DNA from: a phage
Direction: 5' to 3' (one strand)
Length of the DNA stretch: 64,000 nucleotides
NCBI GenBank assembly: GCA_027262695.1
Contig: GCA_027262695.1_4722.1
Positions 25,784 to 60,160 of this stretch are shown one piece after another (the stretch's first letter is position 1; each line of letters opens with the position of its first letter). Below the pieces are notes generated by a model that saw nothing but the letters and a program-made list of their open reading frames with translations, made no database searches and was not told the origin of the DNA. The position numbers and the translations under genes were made by a program.

Positions 25784-25785
25784 TT

Positions 25786-44584: not shown

Positions 44585-45478
44585 TTAATCGGAAGTGTTA
44601 TAACCGAATACTGCTTTACCGTAGGTGTGAGTACCATCACTGAGTGACAATACTAATACGTGGTTATACGCATCGTTAACACCCTTGTCGGTAGAATCGG
44701 TGGTAACACCGTTGTAGACAAAGGTAGCTGATTGCAGATTGGTTTTCAGTTCATTGATGATATCATCACTTACACCAGTCTGCTCTTTAATCAGAGTAGT
44801 CAGGTTACCTGCTAAGCTTGCGTCGAGATTTACTTCGTTGCCAGTAATAGCTTGTAAACCTGAAGCGTAAGTACTGAAGTCTAACGGATAGGTTAACAGA
44901 CGTGCTGACGTTTTGGTACCATTGCCTTCATCAACGTAGGTTAAGTTACCCAGGTTGGTAACCTTGATAATGTTAGACAGATCCAGCGTTGTGTTATAAA
45001 CTTTAACTTGAACAGAACCATACCAAGCCAACGAATCTTCTTTGGCTTCCAGGGTAACGGTTTGGATACCTGACTGATCAAAGGTAACGGGATTAGATAA
45101 CGTTTCAGCTTTGATGTCTTTTGTTTTATCCAGGAACTTCTCGCCGGAAGGCGTAACCATACCGTAGCGTTGAGCTACGAGGTCGACCACGTCACCGATG
45201 GTGGTGTTTGCTTCAACACTAACGCGCACCGCGATCTTCTGGAACCATTTAGCCAGATCCAGACGATGATAGGTGACATCGCGGGTATTGAAGTACGGTG
45301 TACCATCACCCGGACTGAGTGTTAATGTTGCTGCACTATCAGAATCGCTTTTGGATTTAAGAACGTATTTGAGATCAGTGTATTTGAAACTGGCTCCCGT
45401 ATCGGCGTTAAGCTGGTTGATCTCATCAACGATAAGTTGCCACGGTGTTTTCAAAGTAAGTGATACTCGACTTGACAT
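44585..45478 (-). CDS. structural-region paralog family member A (YYDR-YG-LAWTGSV family)
   Basis: VTYHRLDL, LVAQRYGMV, LAWYGSVQV. Confidence 0.55.
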   Translation of the reverse strand: MSSRVSLTLKTPWQLIVDEINQLNADTGASFKYTDLKYVLKSKSDSDSAATLTLSPGDGTPYFNTRDVTYHRLDLAKWFQKIAVRVSVEANTTIGDVVDLVAQRYGMVTPSGEKFLDKTKDIKAETLSNPVTFDQSGIQTVTLEAKEDSLAWYGSVQVKVYNTTLDLSNIIKVTNLGNLTYVDEGNGTKTSARLLTYPLDFSTYASGLQAITGNEVNLDASLAGNLTTLIKEQTGVSDDIINELKTNLQSATFVYNGVTTDSTDKGVNDAYNHVLVLSLSDGTHTYGKAVFGYNTSD

Positions 45479-45514
45479 TTTTTTACCTCGATGGTTGTTA
45501 CATCACTCTCAAAA

Positions 45515-45562
45515 GATGTAAATGTTTACAGAAAATAATATATTTTATATTTAATGTAAATG
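45515..45562. promoter_or_regulatory. direct repeats ATGTAAATG (x2) with TGTAAA-tg-TTTACA inverted repeat in AT-rich divergent promoter
   Basis: 45515-45523 and 45554-45562; inverted repeat 45517-45530. Confidence 0.35.
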
Positions 45563-45620
45563 ATATGGAGAACGACTCCGAATCTCCTTTTCGACCATCA
45601 AAATCAGAGGACACACAGTC

Positions 45621-46163
45621 ATGGCCTTAGACTTTAACAAAGCAGCGAAATCCCTTCTGCTCGATCTTATCAACACCAAAGCAACTCGCACACTGACCGA
45701 AGAAGAACTGCAGTTCGGTACTCCGGGGGCATCTTCCGAACATTCTAAGAACACCGTTATTCAGCTGGATGCTGCGGATGAAGCAGAAAACCTGCAGGGT
45801 ACTCAGCAGTTCTACTACGATCGTCTGGCTCTATCTGACGTTTTCGCTGATGTAACCGGCGATGTTACTTTCGAACTGCCGCACGGTACTGAAAGCATCC
45901 AGGCTTCCGAGCTGGTAAGCAAGCTGGTCACCAAATTCGGCCTGGCTTCCCTGACCGGTGAAATCAAAGAAGAAACCTTCCAGCTGTCTGCAGGTACTGT
46001 TGGTCAGGTAACTCTGAGCGCGATCGAGAACGGTCTGGTATATACCGGCACTCTGCAGGTTGCTCTGACCTATGCAGCAGCACCGAAAGACGAACTGGCA
46101 ACCGTTCTGGCGAATAACGTAGCTGAAGGTTTCGTGAAACCTGAAGTAGCTGTCGTTGGCTAA
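45621..46163 (+). CDS. paralog family member B; strongly codon-optimised, probably very abundant virion protein
   Basis: FYYDRLAL, LVTKFGLA, LVYTGTLQV; near-exclusive CTG/GGT/CGT/ACC/TTC codon use unlike neighbours. Confidence 0.65.
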   Translation: MALDFNKAAKSLLLDLINTKATRTLTEEELQFGTPGASSEHSKNTVIQLDAADEAENLQGTQQFYYDRLALSDVFADVTGDVTFELPHGTESIQASELVSKLVTKFGLASLTGEIKEETFQLSAGTVGQVTLSAIENGLVYTGTLQVALTYAAAPKDELATVLANNVAEGFVKPEVAVVG

Positions 46164-46172
46164 TAAGCACGT

Positions 46173-46213
46173 AGAGCAATAGTATGGGTTTTGTACAGCT
46201 CGGCTATTGCTCT
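46173..46213 (+). terminator. stem-loop AGAGCAATAG-n21-CTATTGCTCT directly after stop of 45621..46163
   Basis: 10-bp perfect stem; further hairpins downstream in a ~290-nt 3' region. Confidence 0.4.
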
Positions 46214-46362
46214 TCTACAATTTGGTTGTAACAATCTGCGTGGTTGCACGCTTATCTTTCTCATTGAACGCTTCGTATGATGCGTGGTGTTGAAAGGGTT
46301 GTGGATCTCCTCAAGCGGCCAGGGACCCAGACCAACCTGAATAAACACAAACACATGTTAAG

Positions 46363-46394
46363 CCCCTCCTCATCCGTTATTGGGTGGGGAGGGG
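46363..46394. terminator. bidirectional hairpin CCCCTCCTCATCC...GGGTGGGGAGGGG
   Basis: Between convergent genes 45621..46163 and 46458..47093. Confidence 0.5.
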
Positions 46395-46457
46395 TCTTAT
46401 ACGTCTTTATGCGTTCCGTTCGTTCTGGAGCGTTTTAGAACGGTTTACGACAGGGTT

Positions 46458-47093
46458 TTATTCAGCACTGAAACCGTTCAAACGGATAGCTTCGTAACGT
46501 TTACGTTCACGACGTTTACGCGCCTGCCAACCGTAAATGAACTTCTCGTCTTTCTCACGACGTTCAGCTAATTCGATGTAATACATGCTCTGCATATCCA
46601 GCATCGCGTCGATAAGGTAATCTTTACCTTGCTCGCCACGTTTTGCGATATAAGCGTCCAACGCACCTAAGGTTTTAGGTCCCATCCCACCATCAGCGTC
46701 AATATCTTTCCAGTAAGTTTGACGGTTGTTCATGACGTTGAGGTAACGCTGGAGGTTCTTAACGGCAACGGATTTGCCTGCATTGATACCCAGATCAAAG
46801 AGACGGTCAGCTAAGAACACGGAACGCTTCATGACGTCATCAAGCTTCATCTTATCCCAGAAGTGGGTTTTGTAGATGAAGAACGCCATGTCGTAGGTCA
46901 GATTGCGCATATTACCATTCCAACCGAATTTCGTTTTCAGCGTGGTTTTGTATTGATCGGCGAGCGCTTTCGTAATTCCCATCATGGTTTCATTACCGCT
47001 GTCATCTGGGTCGTTGACGTATCCCGCCTCGATGTTGGTTTTATCACGAATGATGAATTCGCAGGTAAAATCTTTTTCAGTAATCTTGGTCAT
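46458..47093 (-). CDS. endolysin, GH108-like muramidase with PG_binding_3-like C-terminal domain
   Basis: EAGYVNDPDDSGNETMMGIT matches the GH108 motif (EGGYVNDP.D.GG.T.GIT); DADGGMGPKTLGAL matches the peptidoglycan-binding motif. Confidence 0.8.
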   Translation of the reverse strand: MTKITEKDFTCEFIIRDKTNIEAGYVNDPDDSGNETMMGITKALADQYKTTLKTKFGWNGNMRNLTYDMAFFIYKTHFWDKMKLDDVMKRSVFLADRLFDLGINAGKSVAVKNLQRYLNVMNNRQTYWKDIDADGGMGPKTLGALDAYIAKRGEQGKDYLIDAMLDMQSMYYIELAERREKDEKFIYGWQARKRRERKRYEAIRLNGFSAE

Positions 47094-47185
47094 TAGAACT
47101 CCTCGTTTAGATAACGATTTAGAGGAACAGGAAGGCCCTAGAACGCGATAAACGATTTAAACCAGGCAAACCCTAGATTAAACTT

Positions 47186-47199
47186 TTCGAAGCGTTAGA
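47186..47199. promoter_or_regulatory. perfect palindrome TAGAACGCGTTCTA upstream of endolysin gene
   Basis: Related TAGAACG / CGTTCT words also at about 47138, 46411-46432. Confidence 0.35.
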
Positions 47200-47219
47200 A
47201 CGCGTTCTAGAGCGTGAAA

Positions 47220-49268
47220 TTAAATACCCTTGGTTCCTTTCACGCGGTGCGCAATTTCTTCAACCATTGCACGCAAGGCACGAAGCTGTTGGTCGTGTTC
47301 GTACCAACCGCCTAACAGAACCCCGCTATACACCATGGTGTCCAGACTTAACAGTCCTTTATCTGATACGTTGATCATTTCAGGGAACTGTTCTTGTACA
47401 CGTTGTGCGATAACACCGATCTTCTCAACATCAGGATCGTAGTCGTGACGGAAACGGGCAAGCCCGGTGTATGCCATTTCACGTAAACGATCACTGAAAG
47501 ATTCTGGATGGTCTTTCAGATAACGGATGTCGTGTTTACTACGCTCATCTGAACGGATGTATGCGTTAGGAACATCGATGTTGCTGTTGAAGTACAACGC
47601 GCTACCACCACCTGCAGAGTTACCCCAATAGAAGCTAGTAAGAATGCTACCGCCATTACCTGTAACATGCACGGTGCTTCCCACCCTCGTTCCACCGCTA
47701 CCATCAACGAAGACCAGTTTGTTTCCGCTGTAAGAACCCCAGAACAGACGACTATCGATGATGTTGGTTGCGGCGAGGCGGGCGTTACGTGGTGTAGAAT
47801 AGACGGTGTTGATATCTTGCTGCGCCTGTGCGTCAGAAGCGATACCGTAGTTCTGCACATTACCTAAACCTACTTGGGCTTTTGTAACAGCGTGAGGGTT
47901 GTCTCGACGGTTAGCGTGATTGTTAACCAGATCGCCCGCCAATTTCTGAATTGCCCAGTTGGTAGACTGTGGCGTCATGTAACGGTTAGTTGCAGAACCA
48001 CCTTGCGCCTCAGCTTGGTTAGCGGTTGGGTAGTTCTCAACGCTTCCTAACCCTACTTGTGCCTTAGACACTTGGTGCGGGTTATTCTTGTCGGCAATAT
48101 GTGCATTAAGCGGAACTAACGCGAAGGTCTCGATGGACGCTTTGGTTGTGTTCGGTGCCATTAATCGGTTAGCTGCAACCCCAGCACGTGCTTCATCCTC
48201 CGAAGCCATCGGATAGTCTTGCACATTACCTAATCCTACCTGCGCTTTGGTCACCTTGTGCGGGTTGTTGTAATCGGTTTTATGTGCGTTAAGCGGAATC
48301 AATGCGAATTGTTCAATCGCTGCAACGGTACGTAGCGGCGTCATGAATCGGTTATTCGCTGTTCCGTCCTTCGCCTCGCTATCCGAAGCGGTCGGGAAGT
48401 TATCAACGTTCCCAAGGTTAACCTGTGCTTTGGTAACGCTATGTGGGTTATCTTTACGATTAGCGTGAGCGTCGACTAGATCCCCACCCAGTTTAGCAAT
48501 CGCCCATCCAACCGTTTGTGCGGTCATGTATCGGTCAGGTGCTGTACCGGCTTCTGCCTCCGCCTTGTTTGCGGTAGGATAGTTCTGTACATTACCTAAA
48601 CCTACTTGGGCTTTTGTGGTTTCGTGCGGGTTATCGGTACGGTTAGCATGCGCGTAATGCAGATCGGTAAGGTCTTTATCCGCCGCTTGCATGTCTTTAC
48701 GTAGCTGATCGATTGCCGCCCAGAGACGGTTATCGGACGCAGCATCACCGATAAGTATTGCGGCTTTCAGCGAATAGATCGCTAAGCAAAGATGTTCGGT
48801 ACCGTAGATAGCACTAACATGGTGGATGTGTGGTTCAGGCGGATAAAGTTCCGGTTTGTTCTTGATGTCGTCCCAGTTGATCGGACGATCGTCAAGTTTG
48901 AGTTCTTCGATAGCCTGATATAACGCGTCAATAAGACTTACGTAAACACCACCGATGATACGATAGTCGTTAATTAACGTCCCCTCGATATCATCGTTGA
49001 TGATGGCGATCGCCGCACAGATTTCTTTACCTGCGTAAAGCGTCGCATCCTGATACAAGAAGATGGGTTTATAATCCACGCCTCGTACCAGTGTCTTACC
49101 GGTAAGCTTTTCAGTGATGACCAGACTTTCGGTAAAGAACGGTCCGCCATCAAGGGCGTAACATTTATTCTCGGTTCGTGGAACGGTATGCTCTTCACCA
49201 ACGATGTGGTTGCTGGCGAGTGTACCGGTCCAGTCCTCGGGGTACTTCAGGGTAATTGGTGTCGACAT
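47220..49268 (-). CDS. tail fibre protein with five NPH..TKAQVGLGNV repeats and C-terminal S74-type intramolecular chaperone domain
   Basis: Repeats about 47846-48656; C-terminal SDERSKHDIRYL...GVIAQRVQE (about 47220-47590) matches the autoproteolytic chaperone motif of endosialidase/T5 pb1-type fibres. Confidence 0.75.
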   Translation of the reverse strand: MSTPITLKYPEDWTGTLASNHIVGEEHTVPRTENKCYALDGGPFFTESLVITEKLTGKTLVRGVDYKPIFLYQDATLYAGKEICAAIAIINDDIEGTLINDYRIIGGVYVSLIDALYQAIEELKLDDRPINWDDIKNKPELYPPEPHIHHVSAIYGTEHLCLAIYSLKAAILIGDAASDNRLWAAIDQLRKDMQAADKDLTDLHYAHANRTDNPHETTKAQVGLGNVQNYPTANKAEAEAGTAPDRYMTAQTVGWAIAKLGGDLVDAHANRKDNPHSVTKAQVNLGNVDNFPTASDSEAKDGTANNRFMTPLRTVAAIEQFALIPLNAHKTDYNNPHKVTKAQVGLGNVQDYPMASEDEARAGVAANRLMAPNTTKASIETFALVPLNAHIADKNNPHQVSKAQVGLGSVENYPTANQAEAQGGSATNRYMTPQSTNWAIQKLAGDLVNNHANRRDNPHAVTKAQVGLGNVQNYGIASDAQAQQDINTVYSTPRNARLAATNIIDSRLFWGSYSGNKLVFVDGSGGTRVGSTVHVTGNGGSILTSFYWGNSAGGGSALYFNSNIDVPNAYIRSDERSKHDIRYLKDHPESFSDRLREMAYTGLARFRHDYDPDVEKIGVIAQRVQEQFPEMINVSDKGLLSLDTMVYSGVLLGGWYEHDQQLRALRAMVEEIAHRVKGTKGI

Positions 49269-49281
49269 AACCTGGAGGTCC

Positions 49282-51879
49282 TTATAACGTGACTGTACCT
49301 AATTTGGTTGTCTTATTGAGATTAATGACAGAGATCTGGGTATCGCTGGTCGTAATCGTTCCGATATTAACGCGCTGTCCTTTATCATCTTCTTGCTTGT
49401 AGATGGTTAACTCCAGTTCTAACTGGTCGCCATTAGGAACAACGGAAACGTACCATGTTTTATTACCTGGTGAACTATTATAGTCTTTTAGGTTATAATG
49501 GCCTTTAGGTAAGGTCATGGCCTTACCGGCAAACAAACATGAAATGTCCTCGTTGATATAAACGTCGAAACCGGAAGAAGCGATGACTGTTGAGGCCATT
49601 ATTCGAGACGCGACGATACCACGATTATAGTCGTCGATTGTGGTACCTATGACATTGAATACTTGCCCCCCGTTACCCATAATGGTCGATTCGCTAGTGT
49701 TTACGTAGCCGATACCCCAAGTCGGATGAATGTTCCAGCGGTACCCACTGTTTTGTAAATATGTATACATGTCCTCATAGGCCGCATTCACCCAACTACC
49801 ATCACTTTTTCGTCCAGCCCTAAATTGGAATGTGTTGCTATTTCCAGATGTCCCTCGGCCAAGCGGGACATGTCCCGCTACTAACCAACCATCCGTACTT
49901 TGCATATATGCGAACGAACCGTACGCTCTGTTATCAGCCCAAATATTCACGGTATCAACACGCTCAACGTAGGCGATTACCTTTTGTACGCCAGTTATAG
50001 CGATTGAACCCTTGCGTGCCGACAAATTAACTTCTGCGATTACAACACCCATTTTACGCTGGCTGCCACTAAACCCCAATACAACCATTAAACACGGTGC
50101 GTTTGTTGCTTCAGGAGGGATTGTTATCGATTGTTTCCAGTCGGTGATTCCGTTGAGTTTTGTTCCAGTGTATGCGTTCCAGACGGTTTGTCCAGCCGAT
50201 TTCAGATTCTGTTCAGAAATAGAAATGCTATCGCCCTCAGGGATTAACGTGTCGTAATTAAGACCGATGTTACTGGATAGACGATTGTCATTTAAGTAAG
50301 ATCCACTGAGTGTGACGTTATTGTTACGATATATTGTCAAGAATGGCGCAGCCAGAGCGTCTAATACCGTAAAGTTACTTGATGGCATGAAACCATAGAC
50401 ATCGATACCATTACCGTGGTAATGGTAGTTTGTCCAACTACCTTGATAACTTACGGTACGCCCATCGTAGTGACCTTGTTCACCGCCACTGCTAGACAAC
50501 GTGTATATCTTGGTTGCTGATAGAAATGCGAGATACCCATGAGCCGCCAAAGCTCCAACAACCCTGTCTTTTATCTTTAACCAATCTGAAGTATATAACG
50601 TACTGTCGGGATTCATTTTGGCTATTTCATCGTAAGCTGTGCCTGCGAAGTTTCCGATAGTGTACGTACGTATATCCGGCTGTCCGTTATTGTCGTTCTG
50701 TACAGCAATTACTTGCCCAGAATCATTGATATCGATATTACCGATACAGTTGTGAGGCCCCCACACCCAATATCCATCTTTATAATTGGATTCTCCTTGT
50801 GTGAATGTTGATGGTCCTCGCCACGCGATGCCGTTCGATTCGGCGTAGTAGGTCGCTTGCCCCGATCCGGGATTCATGGCGTATTTGTTATTGGTTGGGT
50901 CAAAATCGATGTAAAAATGATGCATTCCTTGACGTTGATGATTGTTCTGATCATTTGTCCACCACGATGAACCGACCAGAATTCGCGCTTTACCATTTTT
51001 TACAGTGGACCATAAACGTATTGCAGCGCGCCAGATGATTTGACCGATCCCGTTAGACGGGAAACTATTCGCACTTATACGGTTACAGACTATGAGTTCG
51101 CTGCTATTGTTTACTTGAGTCCCTTCAATTGTGACACCGTTTATGTTAGTGATCAGTGTTGCCGATACACTACCCCCTGTAGGGGCGATAGAGGAACGTT
51201 GAACGGTGTAAATTTTTAGTGATAATTTATAGCCGTCCCTAACAGCAATCCCAATGTAAATAGTCCCGTTAATTTCCCAACAACAAACATCGGGCATCGT
51301 TTCTTTGAAATCGGATAAAGCACCATCGATATACATTGCAACGTGTTTACTGGCATCGAATGTACCATCCGTTAACGCGATGAACATTTTGGCGTTATTA
51401 CCGTTGATATCAGCCGCTAATCCGAGTAGTATGTTGTTCTGATGACAGTAGATGGCTTTAGGTGCTAGATCCAACATAGCCGGTTGGTACTGTCGGCTTG
51501 TCGGTATTACGCTAGTAACTGCACCATTTTGATCCGTTTTACAAATAACGTAATATACGCCATGTATGATGCTGTTTGTCGCCGACCTTAGTAGGACAAT
51601 CGTCCCGTCAGATTCACGACATATACCGTAATGACGATAGTCGGTGATTAAGCCGATAGCACCATCAGCAGAGCCTTCAATTGCCAGAGGAAAATAACTT
51701 TGGTCCCCAACCTGTTCGATATCGGTTGCGCCAATATCGATGTATTTTTCCATCTCAGTGTTGAACTCAGCGGTACTGTAGGCACCGAGATCGCTCGCCT
51801 TTAGTCCCGTTGGGTTGTCGCGACTGGCGATACGCGTAGTAACGCTACTCACCAGTTCGCTGAACTTTTTCATTGCCAT
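49282..51879 (-). CDS. large tail fibre / receptor-binding protein candidate
   Basis: 865-aa ORF immediately upstream of and co-oriented with the fibre genes; no repeats or catalytic motif recognised. Confidence 0.45.
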   Translation of the reverse strand: MAMKKFSELVSSVTTRIASRDNPTGLKASDLGAYSTAEFNTEMEKYIDIGATDIEQVGDQSYFPLAIEGSADGAIGLITDYRHYGICRESDGTIVLLRSATNSIIHGVYYVICKTDQNGAVTSVIPTSRQYQPAMLDLAPKAIYCHQNNILLGLAADINGNNAKMFIALTDGTFDASKHVAMYIDGALSDFKETMPDVCCWEINGTIYIGIAVRDGYKLSLKIYTVQRSSIAPTGGSVSATLITNINGVTIEGTQVNNSSELIVCNRISANSFPSNGIGQIIWRAAIRLWSTVKNGKARILVGSSWWTNDQNNHQRQGMHHFYIDFDPTNNKYAMNPGSGQATYYAESNGIAWRGPSTFTQGESNYKDGYWVWGPHNCIGNIDINDSGQVIAVQNDNNGQPDIRTYTIGNFAGTAYDEIAKMNPDSTLYTSDWLKIKDRVVGALAAHGYLAFLSATKIYTLSSSGGEQGHYDGRTVSYQGSWTNYHYHGNGIDVYGFMPSSNFTVLDALAAPFLTIYRNNNVTLSGSYLNDNRLSSNIGLNYDTLIPEGDSISISEQNLKSAGQTVWNAYTGTKLNGITDWKQSITIPPEATNAPCLMVVLGFSGSQRKMGVVIAEVNLSARKGSIAITGVQKVIAYVERVDTVNIWADNRAYGSFAYMQSTDGWLVAGHVPLGRGTSGNSNTFQFRAGRKSDGSWVNAAYEDMYTYLQNSGYRWNIHPTWGIGYVNTSESTIMGNGGQVFNVIGTTIDDYNRGIVASRIMASTVIASSGFDVYINEDISCLFAGKAMTLPKGHYNLKDYNSSPGNKTWYVSVVPNGDQLELELTIYKQEDDKGQRVNIGTITTSDTQISVINLNKTTKLGTVTL

Positions 51880-51891
51880 TATTCACCTCGA

Positions 51892-52897: not shown

Positions 52898-52936
52898 ATC
52901 CTATCGAAAAATAAAAAGAAGGAAAGGTGGGTAGAA

Positions 52937-52954
52937 CCCACCCATCCGTTATAA
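52937..52954 (-). terminator. hairpin GGTGGGT-aga-ACCCACC followed by T-rich run on minus strand
   Basis: Overlaps stop of fibre gene 52949..55102; TTCCTTTCCTTCTTTTTATTTTT follows on transcribed strand. Confidence 0.55.
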
Positions 52955-55102
52955 CGTTTCGAAGTCGGTTGCTTTGATAACCGCGTTGAAGTTGGCAAGG
53001 AATTCCTTAAGCAACGCTTGGAAGACATCACGGAACGCCGTGTTCGTCTTCAAACTGGTTAAATAATCGTTCTTAAGGTAATCGCTCAGCTTACCGATCT
53101 TCTGCATCTTCTCGCCGTCTTCGTTCTCTCCAGGTTCTTGGCTGTTGATGTTAACCCATTTGATCCCTTCGAGATCGCCATCGGCAAGGAAGTTAGCGGG
53201 CGTCTCATCGTCGTTCAGGATTTTAATTGTGTCGCTGGATTCAATGCCACCGTAAGCTTCCAGAAGCTGGTTGACTGTTAGCGTGTTGGTGTTGATTGAA
53301 CCATTGACACCATCAATACCGATGCCTGCACCTGTGATGGATGTCGCCGAAAGATCGATCGGCCCGGTTAACTTACCACCGTTGATCGGTAACGCACCAA
53401 CTTGCTCTGCGGTGTGTGTGTGGTTGGCTAACGCCGCAAACGCCGCGATAGACTTATATGTCGAATACGGCGTCATGTACGCTGATTGGTTGGTGTTGTC
53501 AGCGGCTTCAGTATCGGTAGCGACATTAAAGTTCTGCACGTTGCTGAGACCGACCTGCGCCTTCGTTACTTCATGCGGGTTGCTCTTATCGACAACGTGT
53601 GCTGCAAAACCGTCACCGGCTAAAGCGGTGATTGCTGCTTTTGTCGCAGCCGGTGTCATATAGCGGTTGGTTGCTTCACCTGCCTGTGCTTCCGCATCAG
53701 AAGCAACAGGATAGTTCTCAACGCTCCCCAAACCGACCTGAGATTTTGTTACTTGGTGTGGGTTTTCGGTATTCGCGATATGGCTACTGAATCCTTGACC
53801 AGCCAGTTGCTCGATTGCGTAACGAACAAGTATTGGCGTCATGTACTTGTTGTTAACCTGACCATCGATGGCTTCTTGGGTGGTGGCAACCCCGAAGTTT
53901 TGCACGCTCCCCAACCCAACTTGCGCTTTCGTAACAGCGTGGGGGTTATTGGTGTTACCGATGTGATCGGTAACCGTTGGGGTGATTAATCCTGCGATAG
54001 CGGCTGCCGTGGTCGCAGGGGTCATGTATTTATCGTTAGCAACACCCGCAGCAGCTTCTACGTTAGATGCTACACCGTAGTTCAATACATTTCCTAACCC
54101 AACCTGCGCCTTGGTTACCCCGTGGGGGTTGTTCTTGTCTCCGGTATGGGTTGTCAACGTAGCGTTAACGTTATCGATACGCGTGCTTAAGCTATCAGTG
54201 ATTGCTTTGATTGCGGCTCGTACACCCGCTGGTGTTGTGTACAGATCTGTGGCCGTACCGGTAATGGTTGTATTACTATCGGCTACACCGTAGTTCTCAA
54301 CGTTTCCGAGTCCCACCTGGGCTTTCGTTACCTTGTGTGGGTTGTTGTAGTTGCTGATGTGCGCAGCAGCACTATCACCACTCAGGTTAGCGATCATCTT
54401 ACGCGTCATCGCCAACGTCATGTACAGATTTTCACCGATGGTTTCCAGATCGCTCTCGGTCGCCGTTGTGAAGTTCTGCACATTCCCCAATCCAACTTGA
54501 GCCTTGGTTACCCCATGGGGATTATCGCGACGATTCTCGTGCTGCAGCAATGCGGTCATTGCTTTATTGAACCCTTCTTCAAGCGGTTCTTTCAATGATT
54601 CGATTGCAGCCACCACATCGTCCCACGTCATTGTGTCGGTTTCGACATTATGCTGGTGGTTGATTGGCGGGAATACGGAAGGAACGTCGGCAACCTTTTC
54701 CCAGAACGTAACGCGGGGATCGTAAAGGTTGTTGGCTAAAACGTTAAGAATTTGTTGTTGATCAAGTGTAAACTCACCCCCCAGTGAATAGTAGTTCAGT
54801 TGCAACTGTCCACTGAATGCGGTGTCCAACAGCATGATGGAACCGTATAATTCCAGGCCGGTCAGCGCAGCCATGGCACGGAAGGGGTGAGTGCATAAAA
54901 AGTCAACGCCTTCTTCCAGATACGCGTTTGTTTCCGGGTTGTAGATCTTTAATCCATTACGAAAATATGGCGCGTATTTAGGAACGAGAAAGTTAAATCC
55001 GGTCCCCGTGGAAGGACGGACAGTGACGAGTTCTTCTGGAACCCATGCGCCATCCAAATTCCCCTGCGGGTTATACGGAAGGCGTTTAATTTCATCTGTC
55101 AT
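52949..55102 (-). CDS. tail fibre protein with six NPH..TKAQVGLGNV repeats
   Basis: Repeats about 53530-54541, e.g. NRRDNPHGVTKAQVGLGNVQNF, NNPHKVTKAQVGLGNVENY. Confidence 0.7.
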   Translation of the reverse strand: MTDEIKRLPYNPQGNLDGAWVPEELVTVRPSTGTGFNFLVPKYAPYFRNGLKIYNPETNAYLEEGVDFLCTHPFRAMAALTGLELYGSIMLLDTAFSGQLQLNYYSLGGEFTLDQQQILNVLANNLYDPRVTFWEKVADVPSVFPPINHQHNVETDTMTWDDVVAAIESLKEPLEEGFNKAMTALLQHENRRDNPHGVTKAQVGLGNVQNFTTATESDLETIGENLYMTLAMTRKMIANLSGDSAAAHISNYNNPHKVTKAQVGLGNVENYGVADSNTTITGTATDLYTTPAGVRAAIKAITDSLSTRIDNVNATLTTHTGDKNNPHGVTKAQVGLGNVLNYGVASNVEAAAGVANDKYMTPATTAAAIAGLITPTVTDHIGNTNNPHAVTKAQVGLGSVQNFGVATTQEAIDGQVNNKYMTPILVRYAIEQLAGQGFSSHIANTENPHQVTKSQVGLGSVENYPVASDAEAQAGEATNRYMTPAATKAAITALAGDGFAAHVVDKSNPHEVTKAQVGLSNVQNFNVATDTEAADNTNQSAYMTPYSTYKSIAAFAALANHTHTAEQVGALPINGGKLTGPIDLSATSITGAGIGIDGVNGSINTNTLTVNQLLEAYGGIESSDTIKILNDDETPANFLADGDLEGIKWVNINSQEPGENEDGEKMQKIGKLSDYLKNDYLTSLKTNTAFRDVFQALLKEFLANFNAVIKATDFETL

Positions 55103-55133
55103 GATGCGCCCTTTACAAGTTGTTAGTAAGTGT

Positions 55134-55152
55134 GGGATACCCTGGGGTATCC
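55134..55152. promoter_or_regulatory. hairpin GGGATACC-ctg-GGTATCC in divergent promoter region
   Basis: Between minus start 55102 and plus start 55207. Confidence 0.3.
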
Positions 55153-55206
55153 TGTGTTAACAGCGGTAAAATATTACTGTAACTATAAAATAAGGGGGCC
55201 TCTCCC

Positions 55207-56484
55207 ATGTATACATTGGTAAAAACTTACGGATTACCCGTAGGTTCCGGCACGGCCTGGACAGCACTTGAAGCGGGTGAAAGCGTCCTGAGCACGTTGT
55301 TCGCAACGTATCAAAAACTCAATATCCAGGTCCATGAAAGTTATACTGACCAGCAGCAGGTTATCGATCTTTATACGTTTCAATCCGAGCTTCAAAACAG
55401 CAGCGATACGCTTAATGCTTGGCTGAAGGCGAAGTCGGATGCCCACACCAACCTTCGTGGTCAACCGGGTGAACTCTCGATTAAAGCCCACAAGCTCTAT
55501 TGTCACGACGTTATCACGGTAGGCTTTCTTCCTAAAGTCGGTAATAGTGGATATCATCCAAGCAACGCGATTCCTGAATCGGAACGTACCGATATTCTCC
55601 TAACAAAAGCGAACACGAATTACGAGAACATCGGCAAGCACTGCTTGTTCACGGTAGGGGGTTACGTACACCCTCACGTTTACGGTAAGGATGTTGGTGT
55701 TTATATCCAGGGTGGATTCAAGACAGCCCAACGCAGCCAGGAAAACGATATCGGGATGATCGATTTCAGCTGTATCGGAAGTTTGGAGATTCATGCGATC
55801 ACAGAAGACATGATTGCGGATTCCACGAAGCTTTTACCGTACAAAGATGAGATGTATCTGCGCTTACCCCGTAAAGTCGCGGAAGATGAAACGGTCGCAT
55901 TAGTGTTCGGAGGTTACTTACATCTCCTCGATGACTGTTACACGATCGTTAGTGATACGACAGCAAAAATAAACTGCATTAACATGTTCTTGTACGAAAG
56001 GTATTTTCGTTCTCGTGAATATCTTGACTTAACCTCCCTCGGTATTCTCTTGGACGAAGAAAACCCACAATCGGATATTGTTGCGAACCGTTTGCTGTCC
56101 GATAAAGCCTTGAAAGCTTGGGTGACCCATCCATGCAGCTTTTGGGTTTATATCAAAGCAACCTCGATTCAAGTTACGCAAGAACCGCTACCGCGCAGTG
56201 GTGTGCCAGGACAGTATTTCTTAGGCAAGAAACCGGAAGGATTAATTCGCGCGGATCTTGGAGAACTACCTGCGTACGTACAGACTTACGAGAAACCACT
56301 GTGGGTACTTCATTCACGATGGGGACTTCGTAAGAACATGCTGTTTGAAAACACGTTATACAAACACACACGTGTTAAACGCCTCAATGATACACCGTAT
56401 CTCCATCAGGTATGGTTGGAAACGCATGCGACGTTACAAACCGTACACAAGCTGGAACTGATCGATTCCAGTCAGAAAAAATAA
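55207..56484 (+). CDS. hypothetical protein (structural region)
   Basis: 425-aa ORF. Confidence 0.55.
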   Translation: MYTLVKTYGLPVGSGTAWTALEAGESVLSTLFATYQKLNIQVHESYTDQQQVIDLYTFQSELQNSSDTLNAWLKAKSDAHTNLRGQPGELSIKAHKLYCHDVITVGFLPKVGNSGYHPSNAIPESERTDILLTKANTNYENIGKHCLFTVGGYVHPHVYGKDVGVYIQGGFKTAQRSQENDIGMIDFSCIGSLEIHAITEDMIADSTKLLPYKDEMYLRLPRKVAEDETVALVFGGYLHLLDDCYTIVSDTTAKINCINMFLYERYFRSREYLDLTSLGILLDEENPQSDIVANRLLSDKALKAWVTHPCSFWVYIKATSIQVTQEPLPRSGVPGQYFLGKKPEGLIRADLGELPAYVQTYEKPLWVLHSRWGLRKNMLFENTLYKHTRVKRLNDTPYLHQVWLETHATLQTVHKLELIDSSQKK

Positions 56485-56499
56485 ACACGGCAAACATAA

Positions 56500-56531
56500 C
56501 CCTCCTCCAACCCATCAGGGAAGGAGGAGGG
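56500..56531. terminator. hairpin CCCTCCTCC-AACCCATCAGGGAA-GGAGGAGGG followed by TATGCCGT
   Basis: Same family; motif at 56534-56541. Confidence 0.6.
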
Positions 56532-56540
56532 CATATGCCG

Positions 56541-57446
56541 TCAGGCTACGTATAACGTTAGATAACCTTCAATGAGGGTGTTCATTACACTGAGTTGGAG
56601 AACGACAGCTTTACTAACATCCGTACGCACCCCGAACGGTAGCGTTTTGAAGTGCTCTGGATCCGTAATAACTTTCGCGTTTTGTAGGTTAAGCGATCCT
56701 GGTATCGCTGACAATACCCAACGATCGTTAACCGTCAGACCAACGATCTCTTCAGAAAGTCCTAACTTCAGAGTGTTCATTTCTGCAATCAGGGCTTCTG
56801 AATGCGCATCGCCCGATGTTAACGTGTAACCATCGGTTAACGCCGTCAACACCGCATCCGATACGAACCAGTTGTACGATACGATCGCACCTGGTAGCTT
56901 ATCGCTATCCCGATCGATGATGTAGTTAAGACCAGCTAACATGTTGTTACGGATGAGGTTGTTCAGGTCGTTATGACCTGATGTCAACTCAACAAGCAGT
57001 TGACCGACCCAGACTTGGTTACCGGGTTTCGGTGTTATTACAACCTGTATCGGCTGTCGGGATTTGTCCAGATCAGCATCAACGATTTCGGTTTTATTCA
57101 GCAGGATACCGTACGTTGAGGCTAAGACAGGCAATACCTCAGAAACCTTGGTCAGTGTATCTAAGGTTTCGATTTCTATCGGCCAACGATGTTGCCCACC
57201 AGACCAAATACCGAGTTTGCTAAGATCGATACGGTTGTAATAGATGTCGACGGAGTTCACGAGCCCGGAACCCGGTTGTGGGTGCACGGTCAACATACTG
57301 TTGCGTTTGTATCCCGTGCTTTCAGAAGCCTCACCGATAACCAGCTTATCCAGCGTCACACCCCGAGCATCGAAATCGCTATGTTTTCGAATCAGTCGGA
57401 AGAGAATTTCCTTTGATTCTAGCCCCAGGATTTCACTGTACTCCAT
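56541..57446 (-). CDS. structural-region paralog family member C
   Basis: DIYYNRIDL, LASTYGILL, QVWVGQLLV. Confidence 0.55.
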   Translation of the reverse strand: MEYSEILGLESKEILFRLIRKHSDFDARGVTLDKLVIGEASESTGYKRNSMLTVHPQPGSGLVNSVDIYYNRIDLSKLGIWSGGQHRWPIEIETLDTLTKVSEVLPVLASTYGILLNKTEIVDADLDKSRQPIQVVITPKPGNQVWVGQLLVELTSGHNDLNNLIRNNMLAGLNYIIDRDSDKLPGAIVSYNWFVSDAVLTALTDGYTLTSGDAHSEALIAEMNTLKLGLSEEIVGLTVNDRWVLSAIPGSLNLQNAKVITDPEHFKTLPFGVRTDVSKAVVLQLSVMNTLIEGYLTLYVA

Positions 57447-57461
57447 TTAACACCCCTTAGG

Positions 57462-58346
57462 TTACGGTAGGATTTCTGCACCGGTTGGACCTGCCTTACG
57501 GGCTTCCAACGCACCAAGGTCGTATTTCAACGTTAACGTATCGTTGGTGGTGTAGAGGTTGTGGTACGTTGAAATCAGGTCGGTAACTTGAGCTCCTACG
57601 ATTTCGTTCATATCGAAGTTGGAACCTTGACCGTCATCAGCACGAACGATTTTATCGCCCGCAGAGACTATTCCAATTTCAGAAATAACCGCGTACTCTT
57701 CACCACCCTCGGTGAGCTTAGCCACATTGCGGTATTCGTTAATATCCCACGGTGTCCAAACCAGAGACACCTTGCAGCTGTAATCGTAATACTCACCTGT
57801 CGCCACTAAAATTCCGGTGGTCGGAATATCCGGTCGTGGCGGGTTGAGGTTCACATCGGTGGGATGCCATTCGATGGTCTGAGCAACACCATCAATGTAT
57901 TTGGTATAACGCATGGAGCGGACAACGTTATCGAAATCGATGCGGCGACCGTAATAACAGATGTACTTTTTACCGCTTTCCAGCGTCTCGATACGCCGTA
58001 ACCCAAATTTAGCACGTTCGTCCGTGGTTAAATCGTTACCCACTTCACGCATTACAAATGGCTTGATCTTCCACGGTGAAAGATTGCTTGCTTCATGGGC
58101 GATCGGCATCGAGGAAGGGATACCGTTCGCATTACGGATGAATTCATGACCCAGGTTACCGATACAGAAGTAACGTACGGCAGGATTACCTTCAGGGTAG
58201 ATCTTCGCTTGGATCTGAAGTTTTTCGTTCAGGGTGCTATGTTCTTCCCACGCGTGAGGAAGTCCCAACGTCAGGTTGGTTTGTACTTGACCACCGATAA
58301 TCGTACGAACGATACGATCGGTAGCACGGATTTGTGTAGAAGCCAT
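57462..58346 (-). CDS. hypothetical structural protein, possible divergent member of the same family
   Basis: YICYYGRRIDF and VSLVWTPW loosely match family motifs. Confidence 0.45.
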   Translation of the reverse strand: MASTQIRATDRIVRTIIGGQVQTNLTLGLPHAWEEHSTLNEKLQIQAKIYPEGNPAVRYFCIGNLGHEFIRNANGIPSSMPIAHEASNLSPWKIKPFVMREVGNDLTTDERAKFGLRRIETLESGKKYICYYGRRIDFDNVVRSMRYTKYIDGVAQTIEWHPTDVNLNPPRPDIPTTGILVATGEYYDYSCKVSLVWTPWDINEYRNVAKLTEGGEEYAVISEIGIVSAGDKIVRADDGQGSNFDMNEIVGAQVTDLISTYHNLYTTNDTLTLKYDLGALEARKAGPTGAEILP

Positions 58347-58362
58347 GTCTTTTCCTATTTAA

Positions 58363-59214
58363 TCAGTTATATTGCATCAACAGGATACCGCCGTAGTTCG
58401 TGCAGTAATCTTGACTTAGTGTAACGATAACCGCATTAGCGAATGCTGGGTTAACCGGATAGCCCTGGGCGATAAGGTCGGTTGTTTTACCTGTTGCGAG
58501 CACGGTTGCCCCATACAGGTTGTTTTCGTCCTCACGACCGTTATAAACCCAAGGGGTTGGTGCAACGTTGTTGAATAAACTCACCAGTGCGCTTAAGTTA
58601 CTACCAACCTTTAATCCAGCAAGATCGGAACGGATGGCTGTACAATCAATAGCGTAACTGTAAACCAATGCCTGGATACGATTTGCGGTGTAGTACGGGA
58701 AATTGAGGCCGGTCATCACCGTGGTCTTCATCATCCCTGCAATATCGCGTGCGCTATCGAGAAGATAAAATTTAACACTCCCTGTCCAGGCTAATCCGGT
58801 TGTTTTCAATTCTACGACATGAGGGAACGGATATTCATCACCTCGAACAATCGGAGAATCAACGCAGCTTTCCTGATCGATAACGATTCCGTACGTTGAT
58901 TGGATCAGCGGGATAAGATCGTGCGTGGTTTTAACACCGGCATCGATTGCAAGCTTCGGCTCCATTCCCAAGAAGAAATCCTGGATTGGAATACGATCGT
59001 ACCATACGTAGCTGCTTTCACGGTACTGCGCTGGTGTTACGGTTGCCGAAGGCGATACTTTAGCGCGGGTATTTCGATTATACGCGTGGTTTCCGTTTTC
59101 AGCAACATCCGTGATATCAAGTGCATCGAAGTTAAAGTCGAAGTCAGGATTGGCTACCTGAATAAGTTCGGCGACCAGTACTTTAGGACTTTTGTTTAAC
59201 AATTTCTGACTCAT
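58363..59214 (-). CDS. structural-region paralog family member E
   Basis: YVWYDRIPI, LIQSTYGIVI, LAWTGSVKF. Confidence 0.55.
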   Translation of the reverse strand: MSQKLLNKSPKVLVAELIQVANPDFDFNFDALDITDVAENGNHAYNRNTRAKVSPSATVTPAQYRESSYVWYDRIPIQDFFLGMEPKLAIDAGVKTTHDLIPLIQSTYGIVIDQESCVDSPIVRGDEYPFPHVVELKTTGLAWTGSVKFYLLDSARDIAGMMKTTVMTGLNFPYYTANRIQALVYSYAIDCTAIRSDLAGLKVGSNLSALVSLFNNVAPTPWVYNGREDENNLYGATVLATGKTTDLIAQGYPVNPAFANAVIVTLSQDYCTNYGGILLMQYN

Positions 59215-59224
59215 TGTTTATTCC

Positions 59225-60160
59225 TTAGCCTTGTTCTTTCGGGGAACGGCCCTGAAGGCTTGCGGTATGCCCGTCGACATTATAATAGAAAATCAACGGA
59301 CCGCCAACAGCAGTACAGTAGTTTTCATCCAGACTGATTTCGATGCCGTATTGGTAACCTGCGCGAGCCGGGATACGTTCGCCTAACTCACCGTTGAAAT
59401 CCACCTTCGCGTTATACAGGTTGTATGGCGCTGTGTTATCGGTTAATACCCAACGATCGGTGGTCATTTCAGCCAGAAGGTCAGCAACCATCACATCGCT
59501 AACAACGGTACCTGTTACCAGCGAAGCCAAAAGCTCACCGTACTCAGACGTATCGCGACTGTAACTGTAGATTTCACCGCTTGCACGTACACCCTGTCCA
59601 AAGAACTTAAGACCGTCCAGCTCTTTGATCGCGATGATATCATCAAGATTCGGTACACGCGATTTCATCAGGATACGAACGCTCCCCGTCCAAGCCAGGC
59701 AACTAGATACGACGCGAAGCAACTGTCCGTTAACGGTATCCCAGTTAAGTTCATCGTTGACGATTTCTTCAGCTGTAAGGCCAAGACCGAAACGTTCCTT
59801 GATGATAGGCCAGATATCACGCATCTTGGTGGCGTCTGGCGCATCAATAAGAATAGGCGCTACGTTACGCAGATACGCGCCGATATTAATACGATCGTAA
59901 TACAGCGTCGTCGAACCTTCATAATCGTCTAACTCAGTAAGCTTAGCGGTTGCCGTTGCCGTAATCTGGGTGTCGCGCTCGTAGGCGCTTTGGTTAGTGG
60001 TTGGTGTTCCTAAAACCAATAATTCAGGTGTCAGGACGTGTTCTCCGTTCTGAGGTGGGTTATCGTGGTTGATAAGACCGTACACGAGATCGGATGAAGG
60101 TAAAGAGACGTCAACCGGGTAAAGTTCGGTGCCGTCAGTAGTTGTTACCGTATCACTCAC
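59225..60160 (-). CDS. structural-region paralog family member F
   Basis: TLYYDRINI, IIKERFGLGL, LAWTGSVRI. Confidence 0.55.
   Translation of the reverse strand: MSDTVTTTDGTELYPVDVSLPSSDLVYGLINHDNPPQNGEHVLTPELLVLGTPTTNQSAYERDTQITATATAKLTELDDYEGSTTLYYDRINIGAYLRNVAPILIDAPDATKMRDIWPIIKERFGLGLTAEEIVNDELNWDTVNGQLLRVVSSCLAWTGSVRILMKSRVPNLDDIIAIKELDGLKFFGQGVRASGEIYSYSRDTSEYGELLASLVTGTVVSDVMVADLLAEMTTDRWVLTDNTAPYNLYNAKVDFNGELGERIPARAGYQYGIEISLDENYCTAVGGPLIFYYNVDGHTASLQGRSPKEQG

Follow-up and report, generated by a model that had tools for sequence, protein, structure and literature searches.

For the Escherichia phage Goslar, a cryo-EM and mass-spectrometry preprint from 2026 proposes that a head-to-tail 'fibre cloud' serves host recognition, with estimated copy numbers per virion of ~8 for gp31, ~27 for gp34, ~112 for gp33, ~577 for gp22 and ~2144 for gp23 (10.64898/2026.04.21.720040). 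That gp22 forms filaments in vitro is established by negative-stain EM, and AlphaFold 3 predicts head-to-tail dimers for it; three further proteins, gp86, gp92 and gp161, carry DUF7941 fused to carbohydrate-binding, glycosidase and LRR domains (10.64898/2026.04.21.720040). The cryo-EM of the Goslar baseplate contains no density for any DUF7941 protein, and none is among the 28 modelled capsid, neck and tail proteins (10.64898/2026.04.21.720040).

A position for one member of this family is established in phiKZ. The published role of gp139 (DUF7208) is to form the spokes, homodimer filaments running from the wedge to the peripheral baseplate; in phiKZ the gp139 dimer band begins at wedge protein gp128 and 'terminates at gp127', a DUF7941 protein that caps the outer spoke end with its N-terminal domain. 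In SPN3US, a 'paralog family B' comprising gp83, gp138-154, gp161 and gp237 was described in 2016-2017; the first study assigned 20 members to the head and the second counted 21 Paralog B proteins, with gp237 later re-assigned from head to tail (PMC5105663, PMC5694885, PMC10052503). The Goslar preprint (10.64898/2026.04.21.720040) does not mention the SPN3US work.

We analysed a 64,000-nucleotide stretch of phage DNA, here called the window, which stems from a close relative of Goslar, with ~90% identity at the DNA level. A preliminary description made from the sequence had proposed five to six paralogs sharing three colinear motifs, dispersed in a fibre and structural block on both sides of the endolysin and tail-fibre genes. 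The family does lie amid baseplate, fibre and endolysin genes, and all six open reading frames were confirmed with their coordinates and strands. The features are as follows.

44585..45478, minus strand: protein A, 297 aa, full-length DUF7941 (PF25613, E 2.3e-51; ortholog of Goslar gp22)
45479..45620, no strand: AT-rich spacer of 142 bp between the divergent genes A (minus) and B (plus), from sequence and gene orientations
45621..46163, plus strand: protein B, 180 aa, short-form DUF7941 (PF25613, E 1.2e-20; ortholog of Goslar gp23)
56541..57446, minus strand: protein C, 301 aa, full-length DUF7941 (PF25613, E 1.1e-54; ortholog of Goslar gp31)
57462..58346, minus strand: protein D, 294 aa, DUF7208 baseplate spoke protein (PF23838, E 7.1e-94; ortholog of Goslar gp32 and phiKZ gp139)
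58363..59214, minus strand: protein E, 283 aa, full-length DUF7941 (PF25613, E 4e-47; ortholog of Goslar gp33)
59225..60160, minus strand: protein F, 311 aa, GTG start, full-length DUF7941 (PF25613, E 7.7e-63; ortholog of Goslar gp34)
59273..59557, minus strand: C-terminal domain of F, aa 202-296, moderate pLDDT, absent from B
59558..59662, minus strand: linker of F, aa 167-201, low pLDDT in the monomer model, conserved sequence
59663..60121, minus strand: globular N-terminal domain of F, aa 14-166, carrying all three motifs (AlphaFold2 model)
60220..62700, minus strand: baseplate wedge protein (Goslar gp35, phiKZ gp128), open reading frame as listed; the spoke attaches here

Judged by their sequences, A, B, C, E and F are true paralogs, ancient and diverged, and belong to DUF7941, a known chimallivirus family whose proteins are abundant in the virions of nucleus-forming jumbo phages. 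Each matches phrog_1037 and/or phrog_2935 ('virion structural protein') in addition to PF25613 (E 1.2e-20 to 7.7e-63), and Smith-Waterman scores against shuffles gave z values of 3.8-30.8 in nine of the ten pairs; for the remaining pair, B and E, z is only 1.1 and the connection runs via other family members. The motifs are (F/L/I/V/T)(Y/W)Y(D/N/H)R, starting at aa 64-86, (Y/F)G(I/L/M) at aa 105-124 and an LAWTGSV-like motif at aa 139-155, with gaps of 36-44 aa and 31-45 aa between them; protein A has the variant TYHRLDL at the first motif. They coincide with the best-conserved columns of the family (Y88, R90, G125, W157 and G159 in F numbering), and the similarity reaches far outside them. 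Run against the 311 six-frame open reading frames of the window, a composite regular expression of the three motifs matched family members and nothing else, and it had no match in 200 residue shuffles of these frames. No additional member came up in any window frame when a profile HMM of the five proteins was used.

The colinear order and conserved spacing thus stand for five of the open reading frames and fail for the suggested sixth, protein D. It sits between family members and contains YYGRRIDF and VSLVWTPW, which could invite a six-member reading. As a candidate paralog it had to be rejected: z against the five is 0-1.7, hhalign against the family profile gives a probability of 0.09%, its FGL (aa 114) precedes CYYGRR (aa 130), its LVWTPW lacks the conserved G and the linker motif described below is absent. 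D has no DUF7941 match in Pfam, belonging instead to another Pfam family (E 7e-94), and it matches Goslar gp32 (PDB 11lx_Aa, E 1.8e-196) and PHIKZ139 (9xpg and 9xqd, E 1.2e-41). One PDB entry contains both its solved homolog gp139 and gp127, and our DUF7941 models did not match gp139. A six-member family has therefore next to no chance of being right, and the same applies to a chance recurrence of short motifs, which is excluded for the other five by the Pfam matches, the alignment scores and the motif shuffles. Since five open reading frames belong to the known DUF7941 family and the sixth is an unrelated spoke protein, the observation is real but already described, and its mechanism is settled only in part. 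D is likely a docking partner of a DUF7941 protein.

Orthology with Goslar is direct and established. Gene order, orientation and lengths of the five are identical, the only difference being sequence drift (84.8-96.8% amino acid identity), and mass spectrometry of purified Goslar virions picked up all five orthologs (10.64898/2026.04.21.720040, Table S4). This check, suggested beforehand, and the significance of the alignments both come out in favour of the proposed family. All five genes are under purifying selection (dN/dS 0.04-0.29), though not evenly: the abundant A and B have drifted further (84.8%, roughly 85%, to gp22 with dN/dS 0.18, and 91.1% to gp23 with dN/dS 0.29) than C, E and F (92-97%; 91.7% to gp31, 96.8% to gp33 and 96.1% to gp34, each with dN/dS 0.04). 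The higher dN/dS of the two abundant members is new here. Their divergent promoters presumably lie in the spacer 45479..45620. Sigma-70-like sites are not enriched around it (20 found vs 30 expected), which is expected because the phage uses its own RNA polymerases.

The other three genes lie in a baseplate block. The wedge open reading frame is 96.7% identical to Goslar gp35, whose annotated N-terminus is 23 codons shorter, and 35% identical to phiKZ gp128 (E 2e-119). F lies directly downstream of it, as do phiKZ gp127 and gp8 of Erwinia phage RAY. In RAY (gp7-gp11) the order wedge-DUF7941-DUF7941-DUF7208-DUF7941 is conserved; F and gp8 (126 bits) as well as E and gp9 are reciprocal best matches, and C is the positional counterpart of gp11. 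One metagenomic contig carries DUF7941, DUF7208 and a GH108 endolysin together.

The domain layout, exemplified by F, is established and consists of an N-terminal domain, a linker and a C-terminal domain. In the AlphaFold2 model the first is mixed alpha/beta, with a pLDDT of 62-88 per 10-residue block, mostly 70-88; the suggestion that structure prediction might reveal an Ig-like or beta-sandwich fold was thus not borne out. It contains the motif sites YYDR (aa 86-90), FGL (aa 124-126) and LAWTGSV (aa 155-161), and its conserved columns are N63, T64, G82, Y88, R90, D115, N121, G125, D132, W157 and G159. The linker has a pLDDT of ~30 in the monomer model, a low value that may partly stem from the 5-sequence alignment. 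Yet residues of this 'disordered' segment (L172, L181, G183, Y186, P187, A195, Y198 and Y200) are conserved family-wide, some of them among the most strongly of all, and the conservation of the linker is established: the motif reads DLSNIIKVTNLGNL in A (at aa 166, behind the three motifs at aa 69, 105 and 150) and ELATVLANNVAEGF in B (at aa 158). The small C-terminal domain (conserved residues W237, N247, L248, A251, G257, G287 and Y293) is missing from B, which consists of N-terminal domain and linker and covers profile positions 4-173 of 276 in PF25613 (phrog_2935, E 3e-21).

Among 186 family representatives we found natural fusions of the types N-N (11), N-N-N (about 6) and NC-C (6), the last showing that the C-terminal domain has been duplicated independently. 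The AlphaFold2 model of the N-N fusion P0067 has a mean pLDDT of 86.6 and an ordered inter-domain linker (87-94); the tail beyond the last domain is below 50. The linker seems to become ordered only upon binding, and we propose it as the docking segment for the next subunit; head-to-tail docking would then be the mode of assembly suggested by these models. The conserved linker motif, the tandem N-N and N-N-N fusions and the confident tandem model with its ordered linker are new here.

The phiKZ family resembles that of the window in several ways. Both gp126 and gp127 match PF25613 (E 4e-9 and 1e-27), the gene for gp127 adjoins the wedge gene, and the spoke capped by gp127 is made of the homolog of D. 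The N-terminal domain fold is common to both: the F model retrieves the gp127 N-terminal domain (9xqd_0, Foldseek E 8.5e-7), which has no companion among PDB structural neighbours of the DUF7941 N-terminal domain, and the profile of the five proteins matches PDB 9xqd chain 0 (PHIKZ127) over its full length (E 2e-18). However, identity is ~20%, there are just 2-3 members, the spoke gene is not beside the DUF7941 genes, and gp143 scores 18 bits, under the Pfam cut-off, with no BLAST similarity to B. Sequence orthology to gp127 is ambiguous because its best window match is A and not the syntenic F.

Our HMM and Pfam also match SPN3US gp138-145, 148, 151, 155, 160 and 237 (gp141 with E 1.3e-84, the tail-assigned gp237 with E 1e-26). 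As in the window, an abundant full-length protein of ~32 kDa (gp141, 32.6 kDa, the closest SPN3US match of A) is paired with an abundant short one of ~18 kDa (gp160, 18.5 kDa) encoded near the endolysin. SPN3US differs in having a tandem array of ~20 copies, which except for gp237 were assigned to the head from proteomes of tailless mutants. In other members the N-terminal module of DUF7941 is fused to Laminin_G_3 (a ConA-like lectin) or He_PIG, and in SPN3US gp155 to a gp38 tail-fibre adhesin domain; these lectin and adhesin fusions are likewise new here. The idea of an adhesin, decoration or fibre-adaptor set comes close to the current proposal as far as adaptors and adhesins are concerned, given the lectin, Ig-like and gp38-adhesin fusions and the spoke-tip position of gp127. 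For the five window proteins themselves the adhesin part does not apply: none has a recognisable adhesin domain, and they resemble subunits of a polymer, or adaptors, more than adhesins. A decoration role is possible, since the SPN3US data put most family members with tailless heads.

The best explanation in our view, to which we assign a probability of about 60%, is a DUF7941 polymer with a baseplate anchor and host-facing members. The SPN3US data do not fit a polymer anchored exclusively at the baseplate, unless free filaments co-purify with heads, a conflict that has been overlooked so far. They could instead mean that most members, including those of the gp22 (A) and gp23 (B) types, sit on the capsid surface or are packaged inside as ejection proteins, with one or a few at the baseplate. 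SPN3US paralog family B is the DUF7941 family by HMM and Pfam, and tailless particles of two mutants contained it: those of 64_112(am27), and those of 255(am107), which after dual CsCl purification had lost the tube, the tape measure and fibre family C but kept paralog family B at normalised levels at least those of the wild type. Two abundant members, gp141 and gp160, carry the label 'Head ejection?', the PHROGs category of the family is 'head and packaging', and the Goslar maps lack DUF7941 density at the baseplate. We nevertheless regard a head location as unlikely. The gp127 N-terminal domain was modelled in the outer baseplate, the modelled Goslar capsid and neck proteins include no DUF7941 protein either, and the fused lectin, Ig-like and gp38-adhesin domains would have no sensible use within the capsid. 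In addition, 'head' labels from preparations of this kind are demonstrably leaky in phiKZ: two proteins that lie in the baseplate, gp128 and gp157, bear the annotation 'structural head protein'. Since gp22 polymerises alone in vitro, free filaments could co-purify with heads.

It might also be that the proteins are static structural parts of the peripheral baseplate, capping or bracing the tips of the spokes without any part in host recognition, the filaments and high copy numbers being self-association by-products of over-expression or purification. The sole directly seen position is indeed that in phiKZ, where each star lobe has a single gp127 N-terminal domain, the filament evidence consists of in vitro data and prediction, and C, E and F are low-copy, encoded in the baseplate block and highly constrained. 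But ~2100 copies of gp23 and ~580 of gp22 per CsCl-purified virion are difficult to reconcile with purely static pieces, SPN3US independently shows the same abundance pattern for gp160 and gp141, N-N-N tandems as well as fusions with adhesins or lectins occur widely, and some genomes expand the family to ~20 copies. This makes a purely static role quite improbable.

A functional analogy to the polymer with baseplate anchor and host-facing members might be the chaperone-usher pilus with its donor-strand complementation: here, too, paralogous subunits would polymerise via an extension that completes or binds the next subunit, low-copy adaptors accompany an abundant major subunit, and specialised members carry the adhesin domains. 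There is no sequence or fold similarity, the DUF7941 fold is not Ig-like, and neither chaperone nor usher takes part.

No adsorption phenotype has been reported, and both a role of the DUF7941 proteins in adsorption and which paralog sits where are what we infer from the data above. Each full-length subunit consists of a globular alpha/beta N-terminal domain followed by the conserved linker and the small C-terminal domain that B lacks. At least one of the low-copy C, E and F, encoded beside spoke protein D and the wedge protein, would cap the outer spoke end in the peripheral baseplate like phiKZ gp127 and act as anchor or adaptor. That the abundant members have such a baseplate anchor is suggested by analogy to one phiKZ subunit present in 6 copies. 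The abundant A and B, divergently transcribed next to the endolysin gene, may form the bulk of the polymer, and members encoded outside the window with lectin, glycosidase and adhesin domains would supply host binding.

The five genes that the preliminary description had grouped by three shared motifs are real paralogs: Pfam, shuffle-tested alignments and colinear motifs agree, and the coordinates and translations of the ORFs are as described there. The gene that it had proposed as a sixth member (D) encodes a different protein.

Genes of the paralog region and their orthologs in Escherichia phage vB_EcoM_Goslar (amino acid identity by tblastn)
A, 44585-45478, minus strand: DUF7941 protein, ortholog of Goslar gp22, 84.8% identity
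B, 45621-46163, plus strand: DUF7941 protein, ortholog of Goslar gp23, 91.1% identity
C, 56541-57446, minus strand: DUF7941 protein, ortholog of Goslar gp31, 91.7% identity
D, 57462-58346, minus strand: proposed sixth member, ortholog of Goslar gp32, 96.6% identity
E, 58363-59214, minus strand: DUF7941 protein, ortholog of Goslar gp33, 96.8% identity
F, 59225-60160, minus strand: DUF7941 protein, ortholog of Goslar gp34, 96.1% identity

All five proteins matched Pfam PF25613 (DUF7941) with E values from 1e-20 to 8e-63 and bit scores (A 175, B 75, C 186, E 161, F 213) above the curated cut-off of 27 bits, as well as PHROG families 1037 and/or 2935 ('virion structural protein'). The motifs of the YYDR, FGL and LAWTGSV type (motifs 1 to 3) are colinear at near-constant spacing in A, B, C, E and F, and a regular expression combining them, run on the 311 six-frame ORFs of the window, matched nothing outside the family; 200 residue shuffles gave no match. 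Local alignment scores lay above the shuffled controls for nine of the ten pairs (z = 3.8-30.8), B and E being connected only transitively, and BLASTP among the five gave bit scores of up to 80. Pairwise identity is only 22-25%, and F and E are closer to proteins of Erwinia phage RAY (33% and 26% identity, reciprocal best matches) than to their paralogs in the window, so the duplications behind the five genes are old. An HMM built from the five revealed no additional member among all six-frame ORFs of the window with at least 60 amino acids, and a sigma-70 promoter scan showed no enrichment.

D failed every test of membership, from motif order to alignment, profile, HMM and Pfam. The motif-like stretches of D do not follow the order seen in the family, and D lacks both the glycine of motif 3 and the linker motif. 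Against the five, the Smith-Waterman shuffle z was only 0-1.7 and the hhalign profile-profile probability 0.09%; the HMM of the five did not find D, and PF25613 gave no match at E<=1. Instead, D matches Pfam PF23838 (DUF7208; E 7.1e-94) and the solved chains of Goslar gp32 (PDB 11lx_Aa, E 1.8e-196) and PHIKZ139 (E 1.2e-41). Judged by these matches, D is a DUF7208 spoke protein of the Goslar gp32/phiKZ gp139 type. Published cryo-EM shows that DUF7208 homodimers build six spokes, which start at the wedge protein (Goslar gp35, phiKZ gp128) and reach the peripheral baseplate, and in the phiKZ atlas each band of five gp139 dimers ends in one gp127 (PMC13250141). The wedge protein is encoded here by an 826-aa ORF beside F, with 96.7% identity to gp35 and 35% to gp128 (E 2e-119).

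Goslar was the only megablast match for window 44000-62700 (90% identity, 92% of the query), and its genes gp22-gp35 have the same order and orientation as the region of the paralogs. The window is thus from a close but distinct relative of Goslar, which belongs to the nucleus-forming jumbo phages (chimalliviruses). Coverage by Goslar becomes patchy upstream of 44061, at 59% of 20000-44100, and window position ~26400 matches base ~17 of the Goslar GenBank record, so that the window spans the arbitrary ends of that record. The dN/dS values against the Goslar orthologs (0.04 for C, E and F, 0.18 for A, 0.29 for B) indicate that all five paralogs are functional genes and that the abundant members A and B are under weaker constraint than C, E and F.

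Some neighbouring genes differ more from Goslar. The 865-aa protein encoded at 49282-51879 on the minus strand is the ortholog of Goslar gp26 at only 65% identity, whereas every neighbour has 91-99%; the locus is a local mosaic or a hot-spot of divergence within the fibre block and a candidate host-range determinant. No Pfam domain was found in it; Goslar gp26 was estimated at about 13 copies per virion (10.64898/2026.04.21.720040). Two paralogous fibre proteins, encoded on the minus strand at 47220-49268 (682 aa) and 52949-55102 (717 aa), are 37-49% identical over their repeats, contain multiple repeats of the type 'NPH.VTKAQVGLGNV.NY', and the former terminates in a Peptidase_S74 intramolecular chaperone domain. 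Another set of paralogs, unrelated to the five, consists of three minus-strand genes at 40706-41599, 41680-42522 and 42851-43627 (297, 280 and 258 aa); its members have the motifs YYHP(L/I)GMQ, SDLGW(V/I)HL, HP(L/M)GF and RWD(I/V)S in common and no Pfam match. A clear Goslar ortholog (gp21, 61% identity) exists only for the third. Since the first also matches the gp21 region (34.5% over 110 aa), three copies of this gene appear to be present in the window versus one in Goslar.

There are three earlier descriptions of the family itself: SPN3US paralog family B, Pfam DUF7941 and a 2026 preprint on Goslar with cryo-EM and mass spectrometry. Family B has 20 members (gp83, gp138-154, gp161 and gp237), and SPN3US gp141 (32.6 kDa) and gp160 (18.5 kDa) are highly abundant (PMC5105663, PMC5694885). 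Our window HMM and Pfam matched SPN3US gp138-145, 148, 151, 155, 160 and 237 (gp141 with E 1.3e-84; the RefSeq tag number is 266 minus the original gene number), confirming at the sequence level that family B and DUF7941 are the same family. The Goslar preprint lists gp22, 23, 31, 33, 34, 86, 91, 92, 93 and 161 as DUF7941 proteins and estimates about 2144 copies per virion for gp23, 577 for gp22, 112 for gp33, 27 for gp34 and 8 for gp31 (10.64898/2026.04.21.720040, Table S4). Presence in the virion has been observed by mass spectrometry for the Goslar orthologs (10.64898/2026.04.21.720040) and also for the SPN3US relatives. Purified gp22 formed filaments in negative-stain EM, AlphaFold 3 predicted head-to-tail dimers and oligomers with the linker and C-terminal domain docked on the next N-terminal domain, and a baseplate-anchored 'fibre cloud' for host recognition was proposed (10.64898/2026.04.21.720040). 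That preprint presents DUF7941 as a newly identified, baseplate-anchored family (10.64898/2026.04.21.720040) and does not mention the work on family B (PMC5105663, PMC5694885, PMC10052503). The five-gene feature is already known at the level of these very orthologs; the window adds one more set of close orthologs and nothing else new by itself.

The AlphaFold2 model of F (311 aa) has a reasonably confident alpha/beta N-terminal domain (aa 14-166), a linker of low confidence (aa 167-201) and a C-terminal domain of moderate confidence (aa 202-296). The C-terminal domain is present in A, C, E and F; B ends after the linker. The N-terminal domain has the same fold as that of phiKZ gp127 in the outer peripheral baseplate (PDB 9xqd), the sole significant structural neighbour of the model in the PDB (Foldseek E 8.5e-7). 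The sequence profile of the five aligned full-length gp127 (E 2e-18), and this profile was required, since single-sequence PDB searches found nothing for F and only a partial gp127 match for A. The model contains no all-beta sandwich and gave no matches to Ig, FN3 or BIG domains, and the Ig-like or beta-sandwich fold looked for in the preliminary description is not present. Its suggestion of a modular set of fibre or adaptor proteins was roughly right in spirit, though wrong on the fold and on the membership of D. None of the five has a receptor-binding, carbohydrate-binding or fibre-repeat domain recognised by Pfam; receptor-type domains (Laminin_G_3, He_PIG, GP38) are confined to other members of the family.

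In an alignment of 120 non-redundant relatives (F numbering), the most conserved columns coincide with the three motifs (Y88, R90, G125, W157, G159), together with an 'NT' pair at 63-64 and D132. Conserved positions in the C-terminal domain are W237, N247, L248, G257, G287 and Y293. A further conserved run lies within the supposedly disordered linker (L172, L181, G183, Y186, P187, A195, Y198, Y200), where a motif of the type L-x8-L-x-G-[LF]-x-Y-P is found 16-19 aa beyond motif 3 in all five proteins. Strong sequence conservation in a linker that the monomer model leaves unstructured is the pattern expected of a segment that would fold upon binding of a partner.

An exhaustive profile search found 2309 clusters (50% identity level) at E<=1e-3; it was required, since a word-indexed homolog search gave only 39 close relatives. 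Among 186 representatives, with Pfam used for confirmation, the following architectures were counted.

Domain architectures among 186 representatives (N, N-terminal domain; C, C-terminal domain)
NC: 109
N only: 38
N-N: 11
N-N-N: about 6
NC-C: 6
With a long C-terminal extension: about a dozen

Two or three N-terminal modules in tandem, with the conserved linker between them, occur in the metagenomic relatives P0046, P0049, P0067, P0070, P0078, P0096 and P0149, some of them with Ig-like and lectin-like C-terminal parts. Such covalent arrays, in which the modules are naturally joined through the same linker, provide Rosetta-stone support for a polymer that may be built like beads on a string. The N-N fusion P0067 gave a confident AlphaFold2 model (mean pLDDT 86.6) with pLDDT 87-94 in the inter-domain linker and <50 in the tail beyond the last domain, which fits an ordering of the linker by the neighbouring N-terminal domain. 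On its 33-kb contig there are also genes for another DUF7941 protein (715 aa), a DUF7208 protein and a GH108 endolysin. The C-terminal extensions include ConA-like lectin (Laminin_G_3) and He_PIG Ig-like domains. SPN3US gp155 (ACQ60_gp111, 725 aa; 1170-3347 of SPN3US sequence L007) joins an N-terminal DUF7941 module (E 1.9e-23) to a T-even gp38 tail-fibre adhesin domain (PF05268, E 7e-18), and its gene has the family B array on one side and the endolysin gene on the other. Lectin and adhesin extensions argue for an external role of the family, facing the host.

By tblastn the family was found in 123 phage records, in as many as 9 places per genome, and every phage record among the matches listed is a jumbo phage of 197-322 kb; there are 82 BFVD models of the family, and all named ones are from jumbo phages. 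One paper reports InterPro DUF7941 matches in Spiroplasma Spaid-like proteins (PMC13375240), in conflict with the statement that the family is 'found exclusively in chimalliviruses'. Weak cross-matches to Spiralin (PF05215) on SPN3US gp160 (6240-6767 of SPN3US sequence L007) and on cluster P0037 suggest that the Spiroplasma matches may be a compositional or partial-profile artefact.

Gene order is partly kept between genomes. The block of wedge, DUF7941, DUF7941, DUF7208 and DUF7941 genes is retained in Erwinia phage RAY (gp7-gp11), and in phiKZ gp126-gp127 stay beside the wedge gene gp128. F could not be assigned as the gp127 ortholog by sequence, A scoring higher against gp127, and the link between F and gp127 is by synteny only. 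A short abundant form lies near the endolysin gene in both Goslar and SPN3US, and phiKZ gp143 (25694-26227 of phiKZ sequence L003), named as a DUF7941 protein in the Goslar preprint (10.64898/2026.04.21.720040), adjoins the endolysin gene gp144. SPN3US gp160 scores 42.6 bits against Pfam DUF7941 and gp143 18.3 bits, under the cut-off of 27, and pairwise BLAST of B with either protein was insignificant. Thus, size, abundance and a location adjoining the endolysin gene are the grounds for pairing the short forms as one-to-one orthologs, and gp143 is placed in the family by structure prediction and by its place beside the endolysin gene.

The best explanation of these data, to which we assign a probability of about 0.6, is an external filament that would be built head-to-tail, with the low-copy members acting as adaptors on the baseplate. 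The main rival, that the bulk of the family is associated with the head, is in our opinion rather unlikely. Tailless heads purified from two independent SPN3US mutants contained family B proteins (PMC5105663, PMC5694885, PMC10052503), and in the second mutant, which had lost tube, tape-measure and fibre proteins, the normalised levels of family B were at least those of the wild type. Because of this retention the proteins were classed with the head, from which gp237 alone was later reassigned to the tail. In addition, no DUF7941 density was seen in the Goslar baseplate (10.64898/2026.04.21.720040). However, the adhesin and lectin fusions disfavour a location inside the head, and phiKZ gp127 was observed in the baseplate (PMC13250141). 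The 'head' labels of phiKZ are leaky, since gp128 and gp157 are annotated as head proteins and both are in the baseplate, and gp22 self-polymerises, so free filaments could co-purify with heads. For these reasons the external filament is kept as the preferred reading. The collar filaments of Goslar, considered as another home of the family, are made of gp126 instead.

It is also conceivable, if doubtful, that the paralogs are not interchangeable and occupy fixed positions in an ordered hetero-polymer, similar to the chaperone-usher pilus with its fixed order of subunits. One of C, E and F would be the initiator on the tip of the gp32 spoke, A and B would be elongators, and tips or branches would be formed by members that have lectin or adhesin domains and whose genes lie elsewhere in the genome. 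The order would be set by paralog-specific matching of linker and N-terminal domain and would be reflected in the stoichiometry gradient of Goslar (~8, 27, 112, 577 and 2144 copies). Heads might be a further attachment site of this polymer, which would then coat the whole virion with fibres and bring the SPN3US results into agreement with those from phiKZ and Goslar.

The most useful outcomes of this analysis are the correction of the sixth member and the linking of the literatures on SPN3US family B, Pfam DUF7941 and Goslar/phiKZ cryo-EM, which cite each other inconsistently. The remaining scientific interest lies in the disputed location and mechanism of the family and not in this window. 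Few virion components of nucleus-forming jumbo phages are as abundant as the DUF7941 proteins, with thousands of copies per particle, and the family has grown to about 20 genes in some genomes. Both its location and its function are still disputed. If the proteins form an extended host-sensing filament cloud, phages would have a new means of widening their capture radius, with consequences for the host-range engineering of therapeutic jumbo phages.
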